A stretch of DNA of 30,992 bases from IMG/VR virus record IMGVR_UViG_3300030372_000355, positions 1-30,992 of that record; one strand, given 5' to 3'. The notes below the pieces were generated by a model. That model saw only the letters and a program-made list of their open reading frames with translations, was not told where the DNA came from and did not search any database. The position numbers and the translations under genes were made by a program. Every line of letters begins with the position of its first letter. The first letter of the stretch is position 1. Of the stretch, positions 11,907 through 22,658 are shown piece after piece. The DNA is from a virus (taxonomy: Duplodnaviria > Caudoviricetes).

Positions 11907-14675
11907 ATGCCTAAACAACTTTTAAGCATACCTAGCTTTACGGCTGGGGAGCTTTCATCCTCTATGGAGGGTAGAACAGACTTTGCCAAATATTTTAATG
12001 GCGCAACAAATATAGAAAACTTTGTTGTATTACCCCACGGGCCAGTAACTAGACGGCCAGGATCTTATTTTGTATCTGAAATAAAAACATCTGCAAATAG
12101 CACAAGATTAATACCATTTACTTTCTCAACTGAACAAACTTACATTTTAGAATTGGGCAACAATTATATCAGATTTTTTAAAGATAGTGGTCAAATAGTT
12201 GAAAGTAATAAAACTATAACAGCAATAACTAAAGCTAATCCAGGTGTAGTTACATCTAGTTCACATGGTTATTCTAACGGAGATTTTATAAATATTTCTA
12301 GTGTTGTAGGAATGACAGAAGTAAATAATAAAACTTTTAAAGTTGCCAACAAAACTACAAATACATTTGAGTTACAAGACGTTGATGGTAACAATGTTAA
12401 TTCATCTGGTTACACTACTTATTCATCTGCTGGAATAGCAAATAGAATTTATCAAATCACAACTGAATACACTACTGCACAACTGTTTGATTTAAAATTT
12501 GCGCAATCTGCTGACGTGATGTATATCTGCCATCCCGATCACGAACCGATGAAACTATCCAGAACTGGACATACATCCTGGTCGCTTACAGAAGTAGATT
12601 TTGGAACTAACGGGCCATACATGGATACTAACACAACGGCAACCACTTTAACGCCAGCATCCGCTGGTACGGGAACGGGTGTAGATATAACTGCCAGCTC
12701 AACTACTGGAATAAATAACGGGGATGGTTTTCAAACAACAGACGTTGGCAGAATAATAAAATTTAATGGTGGCGAAGCAAAGATAACGGGTAGAACAAAT
12801 ACAACAGTTGTAGTCTGCACAATTACCGATGCTTTTGCTAACACCGATGCCACAGCAACTTTTCAATTAGGATCATTTTCTGACACTACTGGTTTTCCAT
12901 CTTCAGTTTCTTTTTTTGAACAGCGTTTAGTATTTGCAGCAACTAACGATCAACCACAAACTATATTTTTTTCAAAATCTGGAGACTATGAAAATATGTC
13001 TGCTGGAACTAATGATGATGATGCTATGATTTATACAATCGCATCAAATCAAGTTAATGCAATTAAAGCAATGAAAGCTACAAGAACTTTAATTGTAATG
13101 ACAACGGGTGGAGAATATTCCGTGTCATCTGGAAACGCATCTGCAATTACTCCTACAAATATTTCTATTGTTAAACAATCTAACTATGGTTCAGCGGGTG
13201 TTGATGCTTTATCTATTGGTAACGCCACTATCTTTTTACAAAGAGCTAAAAGAAAAATTAGAGAGCTTGCTTATAATTTTGATACTGATGGTTATGTTGC
13301 ACCAGACTTAACTATACTTGCAAATCATATTACCGAAACTGGCGTAGTTCAAATGGATTACCAACAAGAACCACATTCTGTAGTATGGGCTGCAAGAACA
13401 GACGGAGTGTTATCTGGTTTAACTTACAATAGATTAGAAAATGTCGTAGCCTGGCACAGACATATATTAGGTGGAAAATCAGACACAACTAAAAATATTA
13501 TTCAACAAAAAATTTCTTTTACTTCCAATGCTTCAAATGTTTCAACAACAAATAACACAATCACAATTTCATCACATGGTTTATCTACTGGCGATCCAGT
13601 TTATTATTATGCTGCGTCTAATGTTATTGGTGGATTAAACATTTCTTCACTTTATTACGTTATTGCAGCAGACAGTAATACGATTAAACTTGCAACGACA
13701 GCAACCAACGCTACAGCTGGTACGGCTATCAATTTAACATCGGCTCCTGGATCCGATACAACTCAATTTATTTATCAAGGTGTAAATATTTCTTCTAATT
13801 TTATTTATTCTGTATCTCATGGATTTAAAACTGGAGATATATTTTATTACGATAACACGGGTACAGCGATTGGCGGTTTATCGGAAAATACAAAATATTA
13901 TATTGAAAAAATTGATAACAATCAATTTAAACTGTATTCAGATAAAACTTTATCTACAGTTGTTAGTTTAACTTCAGCTCATACTTCAGAACAAACGGAT
14001 AATATTTTAACTCATGCTAAAGTAGAAAGTGTTGCTGTAATTGATGGCGATACCGATGAAGATCAAGTTTGGGTTATTGTTCAAAGATGGATAAACGGAG
14101 CTGTAAGACGTTATGTAGAATATTTTACACCATTTGATTTTTCAGAAGATGTAACAGCATTTCATTACCTGGATAGTGGATTAAGTTATGTTGGCGATGA
14201 AACATCTACATTATCTGGTTTAGATCATTTAGTTGGAGAAGTTGTAGATGTTATTGGCGAAGGTTCAACTCAAACTTCAAAAACTGTATCTGCTTCTGGC
14301 GGAATAACTTTAGACAATGCAACTGAACAAGCTAAAGTTGGTTTACTTTATACTTCTGATTTACAAACAATGAGATTAGATGAGGGTTATACAGAGACTA
14401 CTCAAACTAAAACAAAAAGAATTTACGATTTATCAATTAGATTTCAAGATACAGTAGGAGCTAGTGTGGGGCCAAATGCAGCTAATTTAACTGCTATTGA
14501 TTTTAGAGCTAGTGGATCTCCAATGAACTTGCCTATTCCATTATTTACTGGAGATAAAACAATAGAGTTTGATACGGGTTATGGAACTGAAGGATTAGTT
14601 TATGTTCAACAACCCCAAGCTCTACCAATGACGATCCTAGGTATCTATCCTAGATTGGAGACAGAAAGTGTCTAA
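11907..14675 (+). CDS. Tail tubular protein B (T7 gp12-like nozzle) with inserted domains
   Basis: SFTAGELS...RRPG, AQSADVMYICHP, FFEQRLVFA, AWHRH and LDSGL motifs. Carries FCCH-like and repeated HG-x-x-TGD insertions. Confidence 0.9.
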   Translation: MPKQLLSIPSFTAGELSSSMEGRTDFAKYFNGATNIENFVVLPHGPVTRRPGSYFVSEIKTSANSTRLIPFTFSTEQTYILELGNNYIRFFKDSGQIVESNKTITAITKANPGVVTSSSHGYSNGDFINISSVVGMTEVNNKTFKVANKTTNTFELQDVDGNNVNSSGYTTYSSAGIANRIYQITTEYTTAQLFDLKFAQSADVMYICHPDHEPMKLSRTGHTSWSLTEVDFGTNGPYMDTNTTATTLTPASAGTGTGVDITASSTTGINNGDGFQTTDVGRIIKFNGGEAKITGRTNTTVVVCTITDAFANTDATATFQLGSFSDTTGFPSSVSFFEQRLVFAATNDQPQTIFFSKSGDYENMSAGTNDDDAMIYTIASNQVNAIKAMKATRTLIVMTTGGEYSVSSGNASAITPTNISIVKQSNYGSAGVDALSIGNATIFLQRAKRKIRELAYNFDTDGYVAPDLTILANHITETGVVQMDYQQEPHSVVWAARTDGVLSGLTYNRLENVVAWHRHILGGKSDTTKNIIQQKISFTSNASNVSTTNNTITISSHGLSTGDPVYYYAASNVIGGLNISSLYYVIAADSNTIKLATTATNATAGTAINLTSAPGSDTTQFIYQGVNISSNFIYSVSHGFKTGDIFYYDNTGTAIGGLSENTKYYIEKIDNNQFKLYSDKTLSTVVSLTSAHTSEQTDNILTHAKVESVAVIDGDTDEDQVWVIVQRWINGAVRRYVEYFTPFDFSEDVTAFHYLDSGLSYVGDETSTLSGLDHLVGEVVDVIGEGSTQTSKTVSASGGITLDNATEQAKVGLLYTSDLQTMRLDEGYTETTQTKTKRIYDLSIRFQDTVGASVGPNAANLTAIDFRASGSPMNLPIPLFTGDKTIEFDTGYGTEGLVYVQQPQALPMTILGIYPRLETESV

Positions 14676-15565: not shown

Positions 15566-17671
15566 ATGTCAATTAAATTATACAAATCACAATTAGAACC
15601 AACAGCTAAATCTTCTAATGTTCAAAACAGAGCTTTTGCAAGTCTCCAGGAAGCTGGATCTATTGGTAGAGCCTGGAAAGGCATGGTTCAATCTGGAGAA
15701 AAACTTTACGCAAAACATCTTGATTATAAAACTGACAATGAAGTTTTAGAAAAAGTTAAAGAAGTTATGAATGGTAGCGATAGTTATACGGGTTTATCTG
15801 AAACTAAAATTAACGCATCACAAATGAGTGATCCAGATGCAGCGGGTAAATTATACAACGATCAATGGCAAACTATATTTGACACAGTAAATAGTCAACT
15901 CTCAGGCAAACAAGCTCAAAGAAAGTTCAAGTCATGGATGACAAAACAAAATTTTAAAGATGTAAACGCAATTAAAACAGCATCTACTGAAAATTTTTTA
16001 TTATCATTAAGAAGAAACAAATTAGATCAAGTTGAAACTTTAAAAAAATCTATACTGTATGGAACACCTTTAGAAAGTAGCGCAGCTCGTAAAGAATTAA
16101 ATGCCTGGTACGAAGATACAAAAACAAAAGAAATATTTGGTAATACATTAGATAAAGTAAAGAAAGCAACTGAAACACAAATTGCTTTTTTTAAATATAA
16201 AAATGTACCAATAGAACAACAAGCAGAAGCTATAGAATTAGCAAAGAAAGATCCAAATATTCCTCTTGATGGCGAATATTCTGTTGATGCTTTAGAAAAA
16301 TTACAAGTTACTAAAAAAGTTACTGCTGATTATGCAAACAAAAACAATATTAATACGATGGAAAGCAATATGAAAGCTGGCTATGTAATTAACGAAGAAG
16401 ATTTTGCAGCAGCTATTAAGATTGCGCAAGATACTGGCGATGAAAAAGGTTTAATTAAATTAGCACAAATGCAAGTTGATTATCCTATTTATCAACAACT
16501 AAACAATATGTCTGTAGAGGCAATTCAAAATAGAATAAATATTTTAACTAATTTTCAAGGTAAAGATGGAAAAGGTAAAAAATTAGAAGATATAAATAAT
16601 TTAAGAATTTCAAAAGAATATTTAGATAATTTAACTACAGAATTAAATAAAGATCAATTAGTAACAGCTAGTGAAAAAAATATTATTAGTCTTGAAACTA
16701 TAGGTTTTGAAGAATTACTAACAACTGGCAATATTGATAATTTTAAAGATAAAGTTGAAAAAAGAATTGCACAAGCCAAAACTGTTTCTGATTTTTATAA
16801 AAGATCAATTAAATATTTTACAGAAGATGAAAAGACAGCTATTCAAAGTGCGTTTGATAGTGCAACAAGTGCTAATCAAATTATAAATTTATCTACTGGT
16901 TTAGTTAAAGCATTCGGTATGGATAGTGCAAAAGCATTTAAAGAATTTTCTAAAGATAGTTCAGTTTTTGCTCACATAGGCGGATTAGTTATGATGAATA
17001 ATGGCGTGCCAGGCAATAATGTAAAATTAGCTGTCGATGGATATTTGTTATCTAAAAATGCAGATCTTGCTGATAAGTATAAAATGAAAAGCACAGATGG
17101 AGTTTTACTAAATGTTATAGGTAAATATTCTGGAGCTTTTGGAGAAAATCAAAATACTTTTAATAGAGTAGTAGAAACAGCTAATTATATTTACGCTGCA
17201 CAATTAAAAAATAATGGAGAAACTACAAAAAATTTTAAAGGTTCTGAATGGGAAGAAGCATTTAAAATGGCTGCTGGTGCAACAATAATTGAAAAAACGG
17301 GGCCAGATATAACAATGGGTGGCTTTGATATTAACTCAAGAAAAAACATGGTTGCTATTCCACCTTGGTTAGAAGAAGGAAAATTTAAAGATGTTGAAGA
17401 ATTATTAAAAAGTAATCCAGAATTGTTTACTCAAGCATCATCAAATGGAAAAAATCCACAAATAAACGGAGAAGAATTTTTACCATCACAAGTTTTTTTA
17501 GAACAATATCCATATTTTGTAAGTGTTGGTAATGGTAAATATAAAATAGCCATGGGAGAAAATCCTCTTACACTTGGAGGAGATCACGAATATTTATTTA
17601 ATACTGACAATCAATTATTCATAATTGATCTAAATAATATCAAAGCAGAAATAACAACAGAATTACAATAA
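15566..17671 (+). CDS. Internal virion (ejection) protein, gp15-like
   Basis: 701 aa, largely helical, in the ejection-protein block. Confidence 0.65.
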   Translation: MSIKLYKSQLEPTAKSSNVQNRAFASLQEAGSIGRAWKGMVQSGEKLYAKHLDYKTDNEVLEKVKEVMNGSDSYTGLSETKINASQMSDPDAAGKLYNDQWQTIFDTVNSQLSGKQAQRKFKSWMTKQNFKDVNAIKTASTENFLLSLRRNKLDQVETLKKSILYGTPLESSAARKELNAWYEDTKTKEIFGNTLDKVKKATETQIAFFKYKNVPIEQQAEAIELAKKDPNIPLDGEYSVDALEKLQVTKKVTADYANKNNINTMESNMKAGYVINEEDFAAAIKIAQDTGDEKGLIKLAQMQVDYPIYQQLNNMSVEAIQNRINILTNFQGKDGKGKKLEDINNLRISKEYLDNLTTELNKDQLVTASEKNIISLETIGFEELLTTGNIDNFKDKVEKRIAQAKTVSDFYKRSIKYFTEDEKTAIQSAFDSATSANQIINLSTGLVKAFGMDSAKAFKEFSKDSSVFAHIGGLVMMNNGVPGNNVKLAVDGYLLSKNADLADKYKMKSTDGVLLNVIGKYSGAFGENQNTFNRVVETANYIYAAQLKNNGETTKNFKGSEWEEAFKMAAGATIIEKTGPDITMGGFDINSRKNMVAIPPWLEEGKFKDVEELLKSNPELFTQASSNGKNPQINGEEFLPSQVFLEQYPYFVSVGNGKYKIAMGENPLTLGGDHEYLFNTDNQLFIIDLNNIKAEITTELQ

Positions 17672-20124
17672 TGTCTATTTTTTACGATGAAGAACAAGCT
17701 ACAGCTGTAGAAAATGTAACCAGTACTGCTCAAGGCGAAAGAACTGGTTTTATGAAAAACTATAGTGCTGCCTATAATGCTTTTACTAGATCAGAAACTT
17801 TTGCATCTGAACGAAATAATTATGCAGAAGAATATGGCAACATGATTGAAATATTAAATAAAACGGGTCATACAGATTTTGTTTCTCCTTATGATAATAT
17901 GTTGACTTTTTCTGGAGAAGGCGAAGAACGAGTTGTCGGATATAAGCAAGTTGCTAAAATTCCTAATAGACAAGAATTAGAAGTAGATTTTTGGAATAAA
18001 ATTTCAGAACTACAAACAACAGATGAAAATTTAAAATCATTATTAGTAGAAGCTGGTTTAGATACTCCAGATAATATGAAAGCAACTATAGCAAGTAAAG
18101 CTCATAGTGCCTGGGAAGAATACGAAAATATAAACCAGAGAGCTTCTGGAGAATGGTATTCTTTTGGTGGTAAAACTGGTGGCTTTGTTGGTATGGCTGG
18201 AGGTGCATTTACAGATCCGATTATGTTAGGTGGTGTAGCAGCATCTTTTGGTTACTCTATTCCAAGTGGTATAGGTGCAGCAGCTTTAAGAGTTGCATAC
18301 ATGGAAGCAATTATTGGTGGTGTAACTGAAACATTAATACAATTAAAAGCACAACCATACAGAGCAGAGCTTGGTTTTGAAGATGCTGGTTTAGAAACTG
18401 GTTTAAAAAATATTGCCATGGTATCTGGTGCATCAGCTGTTTTATCTCCATTATTATTAGGTGTGTTTAAATCATTTGGTAAAGGTATTGAAGTAGGCCA
18501 AAAATATCTTGCTAAAGTTCCAACAGAAGATTTACAAAAAATAAAACAAGAACTTAATAATATAAATTCTAAATACAAAGATGATGCTTTAGATAATTAC
18601 AAATTTCCAGAAAAAGATATACCTAACAATACTCCAGCTGCACGAACTGAACATAATGAAAGATTAAATACAGCTGTTAAACAATTACAAGACGGACAAC
18701 CCGTAGATCTACCGCCAATAAGAAATAAAATTATATATCATGGCACAGATAAATATTTTAAAGAGTTTGATCTTAATAAAACAGCAGATCAATCTATTTG
18801 GTTTACAGATGATATTAACGCTATCAAAGCTGGTAAAGTAGGAGCTAGTGGCAAAGGTAATATTATTGAAAGAATAATAGACGAAAATAAAATAAAATTA
18901 GCAACTGCTGAACAAGCTGATAAATTAACAGACGATCAATTAATTGCACAAGGGTTTGAAGGTGTTAAGTATGAAAAATCTGCTGGTTTTGATGACAATA
19001 GTTACAGAATATTTAATACAGAAAAATTAGACAAAACTGGTTCCGTTCAATCTAAATCTGGTTTTAACAAAAACGAAACTAAATTAGCTGAAGATATTGA
19101 AGGTGTTAAAGATTTTGATGTGCCTACAGAGGCAGCTTATAGAAATCAAGCCTCAGTTTCAGAAGGAGAAATGTTTGAAGATGGAATGTCTTTGGCCATT
19201 AAAACGGAAGCTGGAGCAACATCAGCAGCAAAAACAGTTCCTACTGGTAAGCCTTTAGCAAAAACCCAGGATTTGGCATCTACATCCCAGGTAACAGATG
19301 CAGCTCCGTCATCTAAAGTTTTAGCAACTGCACAAACTAAACCTCCACTTATACGAGGTTCTACTACCAGTTCTGTTGGCGATTTTAATTCCATAACTAA
19401 AGATCGATTATACCATATATCAAATGATTTCAACGAAATTTACAGTACGTTGTCGAAAAAACTTGATAGAGTTAAAAAGGATTTACAACCTACAGCAACA
19501 AAATATAGTGGCGATTTAAAGGCACGAATAAAAGATAAGTCTAAATTACAAGAAAAATTAGATCAAAATATTAAACCAGAACATATTTCAGATTATTTAG
19601 GTGCAAGAATTAATTTAGACACCATAACACAAGCAAAGCTAGTTTTATCAGATTTAAACAAACAAGTTAAAATTATTCACATTGACGATTTTTTAGATGA
19701 TGTAGCAAGATCTAATAAAGGCTCTGAATATAGAGCTATTCATGCACAAGTATTAACTAAAGATGGTTTTTCTTTTGAATTACAAATTAGATTAAAAGAA
19801 CTAGAAAAACTTACAGATGAAAGCCACGCAGTTTATAAAAAGTTAAAATGGCAAAAAGATACTTTAACAGCAAAAGAATTAAATCAATTATTAGAAGCTG
19901 ATAAAAAAATTAAAAAAAAATTAAAAGCTAAATATTTTGAAATTAAAGATAAAGAGTTTTCAAGATTAAATCCAACTAATGATATTGATACACCAATAGT
20001 TATTGGACAAAGAATAGATGAGGCTACTGGAGAAATAGTACCACTTACAAAAACATCAAGAGAAATGTACGAACAAGATGCTAAAAGTGCAACTATGTTT
20101 GAAAGATTGAAGGATTGTATATGA
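17671..20124 (+). CDS. Internal virion protein carrying ART-like and RelA/SpoT synthetase-like domains
   Basis: Gly/Ala-rich hydrophobic segment typical of ejection proteins. YHGT...IWFTDD...GFEGV...YRIFN at aa ~354-455. RxK...EK, DYLGAR, EYRAIH, ELQIR and SHAVYK at aa ~615-724. Confidence 0.8.
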   Translation: MSIFYDEEQATAVENVTSTAQGERTGFMKNYSAAYNAFTRSETFASERNNYAEEYGNMIEILNKTGHTDFVSPYDNMLTFSGEGEERVVGYKQVAKIPNRQELEVDFWNKISELQTTDENLKSLLVEAGLDTPDNMKATIASKAHSAWEEYENINQRASGEWYSFGGKTGGFVGMAGGAFTDPIMLGGVAASFGYSIPSGIGAAALRVAYMEAIIGGVTETLIQLKAQPYRAELGFEDAGLETGLKNIAMVSGASAVLSPLLLGVFKSFGKGIEVGQKYLAKVPTEDLQKIKQELNNINSKYKDDALDNYKFPEKDIPNNTPAARTEHNERLNTAVKQLQDGQPVDLPPIRNKIIYHGTDKYFKEFDLNKTADQSIWFTDDINAIKAGKVGASGKGNIIERIIDENKIKLATAEQADKLTDDQLIAQGFEGVKYEKSAGFDDNSYRIFNTEKLDKTGSVQSKSGFNKNETKLAEDIEGVKDFDVPTEAAYRNQASVSEGEMFEDGMSLAIKTEAGATSAAKTVPTGKPLAKTQDLASTSQVTDAAPSSKVLATAQTKPPLIRGSTTSSVGDFNSITKDRLYHISNDFNEIYSTLSKKLDRVKKDLQPTATKYSGDLKARIKDKSKLQEKLDQNIKPEHISDYLGARINLDTITQAKLVLSDLNKQVKIIHIDDFLDDVARSNKGSEYRAIHAQVLTKDGFSFELQIRLKELEKLTDESHAVYKKLKWQKDTLTAKELNQLLEADKKIKKKLKAKYFEIKDKEFSRLNPTNDIDTPIVIGQRIDEATGEIVPLTKTSREMYEQDAKSATMFERLKDCI
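19146..19394 (-). CDS. Nested antisense 82-aa protein (candidate immunity/antitoxin)
   Basis: ATG at 19394 lies 12 bp downstream of a perfect TGnTATAAT. The product MELKSPTELVVEPRISGGLVCAVAKTLDDGAASVTWDVDAKSWVFAKGLPVGTVFAADVAPASVLMAKDIP... looks globular, while the + frame here is an S/T/A/P-rich linker. Confidence 0.55.
   Translation of the reverse strand: MELKSPTELVVEPRISGGLVCAVAKTLDDGAASVTWDVDAKSWVFAKGLPVGTVFAADVAPASVLMAKDIPSSNISPSETEA
19407..19433 (-). promoter_or_regulatory. Internal antisense promoter (extended -10)
   Basis: Minus strand TTGAAA (19433-19428), then TG-G-TATAAT (19415-19407). The -35 spacing is only 15 bp, but the extended -10 is consensus. Confidence 0.6.
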
Positions 20125-22658
20125 GCAAGTTTAGACAATGTATTATTAATGGTGTTAAAGAAGGTTTAATAAGTGAAACTCAAGCATATAAATTTAGAGA
20201 TAATTTAAACGAGCTAGAAGATTTTTATCAATCAAGAAAAAATTTAAGTAAACCAGAAGCAGAGCAAAGAGCTGCAAGAGAAGTTTACGATGCTATGAAA
20301 ATAGAGGAGGCTGAAAAGTTAAGGTTTACTATCTTGCAAAAAAATAAAATGCTTGAAATAGAAAATGTTTTTGCAACTTATAAAAATGCAAATGGAGAGC
20401 AAGATTTTGCAAATGCTTATAGAGCATTAATGGCACAAGATAATATAAATCCTTTACCTAATGTAGAAAGAGCTGTTGATATTGAAAGAGGAAAAGCTCA
20501 TCAATTAATGGCAGATCTATTAGATAAAATGAAATACAAAATTGGTGGGTTTCAAACTAAAAATCAAAAAGCTAATTTAAAATTAATGGTAAGAGAATTA
20601 ATGGGAGAAAATACTTCTAACCTTAATGCAAAACAATTAGCAGATGCTTGGAGACAGACAGCAGAGCATTTAAGAAAAAGATTTAATAAATTTGGTGGTA
20701 AAATTTTATCAAGAAAAGATTGGGGATTACCACAAATACACGATACATTATTAGTAAGATCTGTACCTAAAGCAGAATGGATAGATTTTATTTTACCTAA
20801 ATTAGATTTAGATAAAATGATTAATGAAAGATCTGGTTTACCTTTTAACGACAAAACTATTAGAGAGGCATTAAGTGAAGTTTACGACAATATTGCAACA
20901 GAAGGTATGGCAACTTTCAAACCAAATACAAATGGTTACGGCAAAGCATTACACAATAGAAGATTAGATCACAGATTTTTAGCATTTAAAAACGCTGATG
21001 ATTGGATGGAATATCAAACAAGATTTGGTTCTCCAGATCCATTTAAAACTATGATGGAACATATTAACGGGATGTCTAGGGATATAGCTTTACTTAAAAT
21101 CCTGGGGCCAAATCCAGATGCAATACACACTTGGGCGATACAATCTATTAGAAAACAAATGAAGATTGATGCAGCAGCAGAAGCACAAGGAAAATTTAAA
21201 AGAAAAAGATTAAATAAATATAGAAACGAAGAAGATAGAACTGAAGCAATAATTGAAAATACAAAAAATTTATATGCTTATCACAAAGGAACTTTGCATA
21301 AACCTATTGATGGTTTTATGGGTAGAACTTTTGCATCATTAAGACAATTATTAACTGCTGCACAATTAGGGGGTGCTTCAGTTATGGCAATTACAGACTT
21401 TCATTGGTCAAGAATAACATCTAAATTTAATGGTTTACCTACTTACAAAGCAAATCAAAATTCTCTTAAATTATTAAAAGAAGGTATAAAAAAAGATAAA
21501 GCATTATCAAGAACAGCTATTAGATTAGGATTAATTGCAGAACATTGGAGTACAGTTGCGGGAGTTCAAGCAAGATTTTTAAACGAAGTAGATGCTCCAT
21601 TTTGGTCTAAAAGAATTTCTGATTTTGTATTAAGAGGATCTGGATTATCACACATTACTCAATCTGGAAGATGGGCGTTTGGTATGTCTGTAATGGGAAC
21701 ACTTGCAGAAGAAAGCGGAAAAGTATTTAAAAAATTAGATCCTAATTTACAAAAACAATTACAGAAAAACGGCATTGGAGCTGATGAATGGGATATTATT
21801 AGAAAAACAAAATTATATGATGCTGGAGTAGATGAGCCATCTATGGTTGGTAAAGGTGCAACTTTTTTAAGACCAGATGATATTATGCAAAGAGCTGACT
21901 TAGATGAAGCTACAAGAGAATTTTTAACTACCAGGTTATTAACTTATGTAACTAATGAAACAAACTTTGCAGTACCTACTTCTTCTGCAAAAGGTAGAAT
22001 TGTTGCAAGTGGTTATACTCAACCTGGAACACTACCAGGCGAACTAATGAACTCTGTTTTAATGTATAAAAATTTTCCAATTACTTTAGGAATGACGCAT
22101 TTGGCTAGAGGTTTTCAGCAAGTAGGTTTAGCGGGAAAAGCTAAATATTTAGTGCCAATGATTGTAGGAGGTGCTTTGATGGGAGCTTTAGCTTATGAAA
22201 TAAAACAAATTGCAGCTGGTAAAAACCCAACACCAGTAGAAAATATGGGGCCACGATATTGGTTAAATGCAATAGTTTATGGTGGTGGATTAGGAATATT
22301 TGGAGACTTCTTATTTTCAGATCAAAACAGATATGGTGGATCTTTAAGTAAAACTATTGCGGGGCCAGTTACTTCATTTTTAGGAGATACTATAAATTTA
22401 ACTATTGGCAATCTTATACAACTAGGAACTGGAGAAAAAACTAATGCTGGGAGAGAGCTTGCAGCATTCGTACAAAGATACACTCCTGGTTCTTCTTTAT
22501 GGTATGCCAGAGTTGCTTTAGAAAGAATACTATTTGATACACTTGAAAAGCTAATAAATCCCGATTTTGATAACGATACTAGGAGAGATACTAACAAATT
22601 ATTAAACAGAACTGGTCAAGATTATTGGTGGGAACCAGGCGAAATTACACCAAATTAG
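20121..22658 (+). CDS. Large internal virion (ejection) protein, gp16-like (start revised to ATG 20121)
   Basis: ATGA overlap with the upstream stop and an AAGGA SD. ~845 aa with C-terminal hydrophobic, Gly-rich segments (GGGLGIFGDFLF). Confidence 0.75.
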   Translation: MSKFRQCIINGVKEGLISETQAYKFRDNLNELEDFYQSRKNLSKPEAEQRAAREVYDAMKIEEAEKLRFTILQKNKMLEIENVFATYKNANGEQDFANAYRALMAQDNINPLPNVERAVDIERGKAHQLMADLLDKMKYKIGGFQTKNQKANLKLMVRELMGENTSNLNAKQLADAWRQTAEHLRKRFNKFGGKILSRKDWGLPQIHDTLLVRSVPKAEWIDFILPKLDLDKMINERSGLPFNDKTIREALSEVYDNIATEGMATFKPNTNGYGKALHNRRLDHRFLAFKNADDWMEYQTRFGSPDPFKTMMEHINGMSRDIALLKILGPNPDAIHTWAIQSIRKQMKIDAAAEAQGKFKRKRLNKYRNEEDRTEAIIENTKNLYAYHKGTLHKPIDGFMGRTFASLRQLLTAAQLGGASVMAITDFHWSRITSKFNGLPTYKANQNSLKLLKEGIKKDKALSRTAIRLGLIAEHWSTVAGVQARFLNEVDAPFWSKRISDFVLRGSGLSHITQSGRWAFGMSVMGTLAEESGKVFKKLDPNLQKQLQKNGIGADEWDIIRKTKLYDAGVDEPSMVGKGATFLRPDDIMQRADLDEATREFLTTRLLTYVTNETNFAVPTSSAKGRIVASGYTQPGTLPGELMNSVLMYKNFPITLGMTHLARGFQQVGLAGKAKYLVPMIVGGALMGALAYEIKQIAAGKNPTPVENMGPRYWLNAIVYGGGLGIFGDFLFSDQNRYGGSLSKTIAGPVTSFLGDTINLTIGNLIQLGTGEKTNAGRELAAFVQRYTPGSSLWYARVALERILFDTLEKLINPDFDNDTRRDTNKLLNRTGQDYWWEPGEITPN

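Follow-up and report, generated by a model that had tools for sequence, protein, structure and literature searches.

The MuF-Apk2 toxins of temperate phages, with their small binding immunity proteins, provide the nearest precedent for the locus described here. According to that work (PMC12226406), the MuF-Apk2/IapK/Aph1 system joins a head-associated protein with a C-terminal RelA/SpoT-type synthetase to a small, dedicated immunity protein, and the present locus would have the same elements, with the virion role assigned from gene position. The MuF domain is N-terminal in MuF-Apk2, whereas no MuF match was found in the host protein considered here or in 14 relatives. In that system iapK and aph1 are separate genes that follow apk2, while the partner at this locus is nested antisense just before the synthetase (SAS) domain. 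Aph1 and the SAH hydrolases carry HD motifs, and the 82-residue partner lacks a hydrolase motif (an HD motif occurs in 0/47 aligned rows).

The toxSAS pairs FaRel2:ATfaRel2, CapRel and Tas1:Tis1 are also similar in having the same catalytic residues and, as far as the available text of PMC11782079 describes them, a partner of 70-85 amino acids built from a small beta-sheet and two helices. ATfaRel2 and the pZFD antitoxins use a YXXY neutralisation motif, which is missing from the 82-residue family (0/47 rows); the strands of ATfaRel2 are reported in that text to be helix-linked, while the strands modelled here form consecutive hairpins that are followed by the helices. The antitoxin in a toxSAS operon is adjacent and co-directional, or fused, to its toxin; at the present locus the partner gene is nested in the opposite orientation, and the putative toxin itself sits inside a virion-region protein. 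The host gene resembles the polyvalent proteins, multi-domain products with ART, ParB-like, JAB and RelA/SpoT modules for which action upon entry was proposed. RelA/SpoT domains were noted among them in 2017; the accessible text names no partner for that domain, and the words "antisense" and "opposite strand" do not occur in it (PMC5512222). HTVC010P-type pelagiphages share with our record a podovirus layout, an Xre-like HTH gene and Pelagibacter-labelled homologues, a likeness that rests on labels and text; "SpoT" is absent from the available text on these phages (PMC8477408). Full-text literature searches, which covered few subscription papers, turned up no antisense-nested partner. The protein family and the gene arrangement appear to be new, within a proposed system of the known phage toxin-immunity kind.

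The window, that is, the whole stretch of 30,992 nucleotides analysed, is a virus record judged 81% complete. Its genes include those for terminase, portal, capsid, tail tube, internal virion proteins and tail fibre and an HTH repressor-like gene, and homologues bear Pelagibacter labels; no integrase was detected among the 30 window proteins scanned from this 81% complete record. The host gene (17671..20124, plus strand) encodes an 817-residue protein of polyvalent type and sits amid internal virion genes. It is flanked upstream by a phrog_992 head protein gene (15566..17671, plus strand) and downstream by a phrog_684 virion structural protein gene (20115..22658, plus strand), and the upstream side has two more genes with matches to "internal virion protein" families. 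The 817-residue protein has no PHROG match of its own, so that its proposed packaging rests on gene position. A weak ART-PolyVal match (residues 353-435) is followed by a linker and then by the RelA_SpoT domain (residues 619-724). The ART-PolyVal-like module (18727..18975, plus strand) falls below the Pfam cut-off and is a variable one, since its YHGT motif is found in 7/33 relatives; other modules occur elsewhere, and positions 18600-19100 make up an exchangeable middle of the host protein. A variable multi-domain architecture within a virion gene block is what characterizes polyvalent proteins, and both features are found here. Among GenBank phages, the host-protein N-terminus and the SAS each gave one weak match, and a GC-rich SAS gave none.

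The SAS domain, the proposed toxin, lies at 19399..19959 (plus strand) and matches Pfam PF04607 above the cut-off (E 8.9e-11), with the motifs RxK..K, DxxGxR, YRxxH and ExQ intact. Across 47 aligned rows, K45, D65, Y111, E127 and Q129 are invariant and R43, K53, G68 and R70 are conserved in at least 90%; the residues that match FaRel2 R64, K66, K74, D90, G93, R95, Y128, E145 and Q147, given as catalytic in the available text of PMC11782079, are thus invariant or nearly so. Enzymes of the toxSAS class are toxic and carry out an adenine-specific pyrophosphate transfer. The PDB matches of the SAS profile are RelP, Rel and RelA, i.e., (p)ppGpp synthetases, and no FaRel2, CapRel or Tas1 chain is named among them; toxicity of the SAS is for this reason not indicated by sequence rank.

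Within the linker, directly before the SAS domain, the opposite strand carries an ORF of 82 codons (19146..19394, minus strand; ATG at 19394-19392, TGA at 19148-19146). A first-pass annotation, made from the letters of the sequence, had proposed a nested gene at this place, and its minus-strand series of TTGAAA (19433-19428), TGGTATAAT (19415-19407), ATG, 82 codons and TGA lies as it was drawn. The description of the overlapping plus frame as rich in S, T, A and P agrees with the composition of 34 distinct loci, where S, A, T, Y and H amount to 14.2, 13.6, 11.4, 0.2 and 0.0% inside the ORF and to 5.7, 7.8, 6.6, 2.7 and 1.3% outside. An accompanying claim of unusual C- and G-ending codons stands for C. 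The base before CAx is C in 66/85 cases inside the ORF versus 107/1085 outside, a real and specific effect, while the general third-position shift is small (C 0.105 inside, 0.065 outside) and third-position G is unchanged. The annotation had also cautioned that this register, whose third codon positions coincide with those of the host frame, is often open by chance, and it was right to do so: open runs of at least 70 codons occur at 16 places across 20 window genes, and background stop rates give 82 open codons a chance probability of 0.03-0.09. Openness in one genome is consequently no evidence, and it was set aside as an argument for the gene. A 5-bp hairpin, TGCCT-N4-AGGCA (19121..19134, minus strand), is indeed present past the stop codon, but it is perfect in the window's own sequence alone among the 34 distinct loci; unconserved and with no terminator match, it was rejected as a terminator.

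For comparison, loci were gathered via the SAS domain only, which gave 89 close loci of 51-100% identity, many of them redundant and 34 distinct at 97%. In 87/89 the ORF is complete from ATG to TGA, with 80-85 codons and an unchanged register; one of the two others reaches a contig end, and in the other a single change puts a stop into both frames. The antisense proteins are 41-98% identical across the 34 distinct loci. Codon counts leave out L024, which meets a contig end, L089, in which one change closes both frames, the L111/L112 remnant and L043 (host trimmed). Antisense stops number 0 in 2698 codons inside the ORF versus 708 in 24108 outside, and a control open run in the same gene is open in 3-8/28 relatives while the ORF is open in 31/31. 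The prediction that homologues would keep the ATG and the stop codon, with no stop between them, is thus borne out.

Third-base C is rare elsewhere in the host gene and is fixed at exactly those positions on which the -35 box, the start codon and the Trp codons of the antisense gene depend. The host Ser codon at 19285 is TCC in 33/33 aligned rows (background 0.04), which gives antisense W36; the codon at 19264 ends in C in 33/33 rows under six different host residues, giving W43; and the codon at 19390 ends in C in 32/33 under four host residues, giving the antisense ATG. Only 7 of 779 host columns have third-base C in at least 75% of rows, and six of the seven lie inside the ORF or its promoter. 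Host Arg at 19354 is encoded by CGN in 29/29 cases (background 0.07), and the antisense Arg at this position is kept in 33/33 rows whether the host residue is Arg or Leu; likewise, an antisense Leu at 19369 is kept in 33/33 under host Ser, Lys or Asn. Substitution patterns reverse between the two frames. Outside the overlap, the mean BLOSUM62 score of differing residues is -0.16 to 0.10 for the host frame and -1.14 to -1.27 for the antisense frame, and inside it the values are -0.66 and -0.54, such that the more conservative substitutions belong to the host frame outside and to the antisense frame inside. Kept ATG and stop codons, zero internal stops, fixed synonymous sites, the BLOSUM reversal and free-standing homologues (below) all agree with the proposed selection on a minus-strand protein; on this comparative evidence the antisense gene is real, protein-coding and under protein-level selection. 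Near-identical RNA contigs of 151-188 nt overlap the ORF in 5/6 RNA runs (X1, X2, X4, X5, X6), with a contig beside the ORF in X3 and a second contig in the SAS in X2. These were left out as evidence, because the runs had been selected with positions 18900-19900, the contigs are strandless and X1 covers much of the phage.

Upstream of the antisense gene are a -35 box, TTGAAA (19428..19433, minus strand), which falls in a host Phe codon TTC, and a -10 region (19405..19415, minus strand) in which a TG-extended TATAAT (19412-19407) overlaps TAATCG (19410-19405), the hexamer with 17-bp spacing. Alphaproteobacterial sigma-70 promoters have a 17-nt spacing. The annotation's perfect extended -10 promoter survives as a conserved promoter motif, though not in the register that was proposed, which has a 15-nt spacer and a last T that is not always kept; the conserved geometry is TTGnnn-N17-TA. 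A consensus promoter scanner did not list the TTGAAA-TATAAT site with its 15-nt spacer. TGnTATAAT occurs twice in the window, both times on the minus strand, with the other occurrence at 12171 inside a tail gene (11907-14675). The G of TTG is preserved through synonymous Phe TTC in 30/31 rows (background 0.07) and the T at -12 through a synonymous third base in 32/33. TTGnnn-N17-TA is found 4-35 nt before the start in 33/34 close loci (control 1276/24540 = 0.052) and in 7/13 distant loci (control 88/8639 = 0.010). The conserved motif has the form predicted for an alphaproteobacterial sigma-70 promoter, a class with a TTG triad and with TA at -12/-11, in which T-7 is commonly absent (PMC8407463). 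A conserved motif of host promoter type, as judged from these alignments, is embedded in the first SAS helix.

No SD sequence is present in any of the 34 close loci, and in 32/34 the ATG follows the hexamer at 7 or 10 nt; from these two features we infer a leaderless or near-leaderless antisense mRNA in the close loci. At several GC-rich loci, by contrast, GGAGG-like SD sequences are present. A second synonymously fixed DNA element, TGGC-N7-AAGGC (19509..19524), lies within the SAS, some 80 nt ahead of the antisense -35 box on the minus strand. Its Gly codon is GGC in 33/33 rows (GGC accounts for 197/1596 Gly codons) and its Lys codon is AAG in 32/33, and it is possibly a protein-binding site.

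An AlphaFold2 model based on 81 sequences predicts a compact fold for the 82-residue protein (pLDDT 86.7, pTM 0.76): a beta-meander with strands at residues 14-16, 19-26, 31-37 and 42-45, two helices at 51-56 and 62-67, and a loose tail. An earlier, weak model had a pLDDT of 58.5, and the fold search made with it gave a best Z of 3.9 among 48,161 chains. W36, W43, G18, P6, P13 and P59 are the conserved residues. The 81 members have no Pfam or PHROGs family match beyond single weak ones, and the HD-domain Pfam family is absent among them; PDB sequences hold no match to the protein, and the ESM Atlas gave matches under 0.9 and nothing usable. By its absence from Pfam, PHROGs and PDB sequences, the protein appears to represent a new family. 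Mean net charges of -3.8 versus +4.9 weakly favour a role in immunity, and charge complementarity fails in most GC-rich pairs.

The distant set consisted of four distinct loci and twelve further loci, with SAS domains 26-38% identical by tblastn and 23-36% identical in alignment. Of the twelve, 11 have a homologous ORF in the same place, at E values of 3e-6 to 3e-24 in a set of 925 segments, and no other match among the 925 segments falls under E 1.7. L146 repeats L108, which is part of the profile, and L143 repeats L142; overall, 13/14 distinct distant loci carry the antisense ORF, over a SAS identity of 23-38% and a GC content of 32-66%. A close-only profile matches L106 and L107 and not L108 or L110, which join via the wider profile only. 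In L139 (1601-3307) a virion-region gene carries a SAS that looks intact, and the 5.5 kb of this locus contain no antisense homologue; another partner may be used there. Host architectures at distant loci vary (ddrB-ParB, RadC/JAB, or none), and this difference implies that linker gene and SAS travel together. Loci reached via the next virion gene comprise 22 with both ORF and SAS, four with neither, two without upstream DNA and none discordant, although most of the 22 overlap the SAS-found set. Judged by this distribution, antisense gene and SAS move as one cassette between unrelated polyvalent proteins. L188 and L189 (2596-5007) carry a homologous virion-region gene in which a ParB-like module (identified by eye) replaces the SAS, with no antisense homologue. 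L111 (2138-2608) and L112 hold a virion-gene remnant from which the antisense gene is precisely missing and in which the SAS is cut after about 30 residues; the surroundings are non-phage, with ferredoxin-like, radical-SAM-like and membrane genes (by eye).

A search for stand-alone homologues, as the annotation had suggested, turned up free-standing copies in two bacterial chromosomes, in both of which the virion frame is closed. One genome (G395, of the family of Pelagibacter record L113) has an 89-residue copy, preceded by GAGGA, near tRNA-Pro amid housekeeping genes. Stops close what was once the virion frame, which also lacks a Met, and the sole synthetase match of the genome is a 581-residue frame, a long RSH. 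The other, of the same order (G1157; L192:1447-3092), has a 77-residue copy preceded by a more distant paralogue (E values for the pair 1e-12 and 9e-5 among 233 segments). The two genes of this tandem pair overlap stop to start and lie between a peptidase-like gene and a 305-residue nuclease-like ORF (by eye), and the phage FDVP motif survives on their opposite strand. With the virion frame closed in these orphans, the minus strand is the one kept once the overlap is lifted. Orphans were met in 1/401, 1/401 and 2/391 genomes of overlapping samples, and a class-wide genome search with the GC-rich profile found 0/401; class-wide searches also gave three weak matches (E 4e-4 to 8e-4) inside frames of 444-625 residues. 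As the orphans are rare and both sites are island-like, they may be phage remnants. Profile searches matched 51 and 56 called proteins. Among 96 called proteins that match the family profile, 33 have 105-399 residues and varied extensions, and some of these may be nested forms; one called protein bears the name of a Candidatus Pelagibacter ubique protein. Called proteins P0234, P0237, P0243, P0246 and P0247 contain the family domain twice or join it to membrane segments or other parts.

The most economical reading, by analogy with Apk2/IapK and the toxSAS antitoxins, is immunity: the antisense gene, within the toxin's own gene and under a host-type promoter, would encode a previously undescribed immunity protein against a toxic SAS that arrives with the virion, a reading to which we assign a probability of roughly 0.7. 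The 817-residue protein would be packaged and then ejected into the cell with the virion, where its SAS would make (pp)pApp or pyrophosphorylate tRNA and the newly infected cell would be stunned; the 82-residue product would bind and silence the neighboring RelA/SpoT domain. The antisense promoter would be read by host RNA polymerase independently of the late operon, so that antidote production would be possible once the DNA has entered, in a lysogen and during virion-protein synthesis, and nesting would render toxin and antidote inseparable upon module shuffling. Orphan copies may be kept by bacteria for protection. Against immunity stand L139, the absence of any sequence or motif shared with the toxSAS antitoxins already known, and the rarity of orphans.

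An ORF that is the shadow of a conserved host linker, or a locus that yields only an antisense RNA damping the virion gene, would account for the shared third positions and the often-open register; the synonymous fixation at the Trp codons and ATG, the antisense Arg retained in 33/33 rows while the host residue changes, the confident AlphaFold2 fold and the orphan genes with a closed host frame all speak otherwise. We consider this account very improbable and, from the synonymous fixation and orphan copies, largely refuted, and an antisense-RNA role, which the annotation had also raised, is not needed to explain the locus. The protein could instead be real and tied to the SAS without being an antidote, i.e., an activator, a substrate adaptor, a folding partner, or a factor acting on host Rel/SpoT to place alarmone levels under phage control. 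Its lack of likeness to known antitoxins, the non-toxic (p)ppGpp synthetases that are the closest solved SAS relatives, the G395 orphan with only a long RSH of 581 residues as synthetase match in its genome, and the interpretation by Iyer et al., in the available text, of such domains as alarmone-like host shut-off would all be in keeping with this, but for an activator the late operon or a fusion would be a better place than the opposite strand with a host-type promoter of its own. Cellular copies that stand alone or in tandem are typical of immunity genes and also tell against it, and we regard it as unlikely.

Quite unlikely, in our estimation, is a resident prophage toxin-antitoxin or abortive-infection module whose SAS acts in the producing cell, through an internal start or cleavage, and is not injected. 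toxSAS modules have been linked to phage defence (PMC11782079), and an HTH repressor-like gene is present in the record; related pelagiphages that carry a gene of this type are described as temperate (PMC8477408). Yet every intact locus examined has the SAS in frame inside a long virion-region protein, and no conserved Met lies ahead of it. The antidote role of the 82-residue protein would be the same under that arrangement.

Immunity to a virion-delivered SAS, if correct, is a candidate answer to the question of how a phage carries a toxic virion enzyme without poisoning the cell that produces it. A wider proposal, to which we give odds slightly above even, is that a virion protein serves phages of Alphaproteobacteria, ranging from SAR11 podoviruses to GC-rich elements, as the vehicle for injecting an alarmone-type toxin, and that a host promoter drives the antidote, of a new family, from the antisense strand of that gene. 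Such a cassette would be shuffled as a unit, its carriers would be immune to kin virions, SAR11 cells would steal orphan immunity, and the S/T/A/P linkers of polyvalent proteins in general would be shadows of unannotated immunity genes. The 82-residue family is missing from Pfam, PHROGs and PDB sequences and is invisible to ordinary gene calling, and its carriers are tied to the most abundant bacteria of the ocean. The locus suggests a rule for further searches, namely that such partners may be sought antisense to the linker that precedes each polyvalent effector domain.
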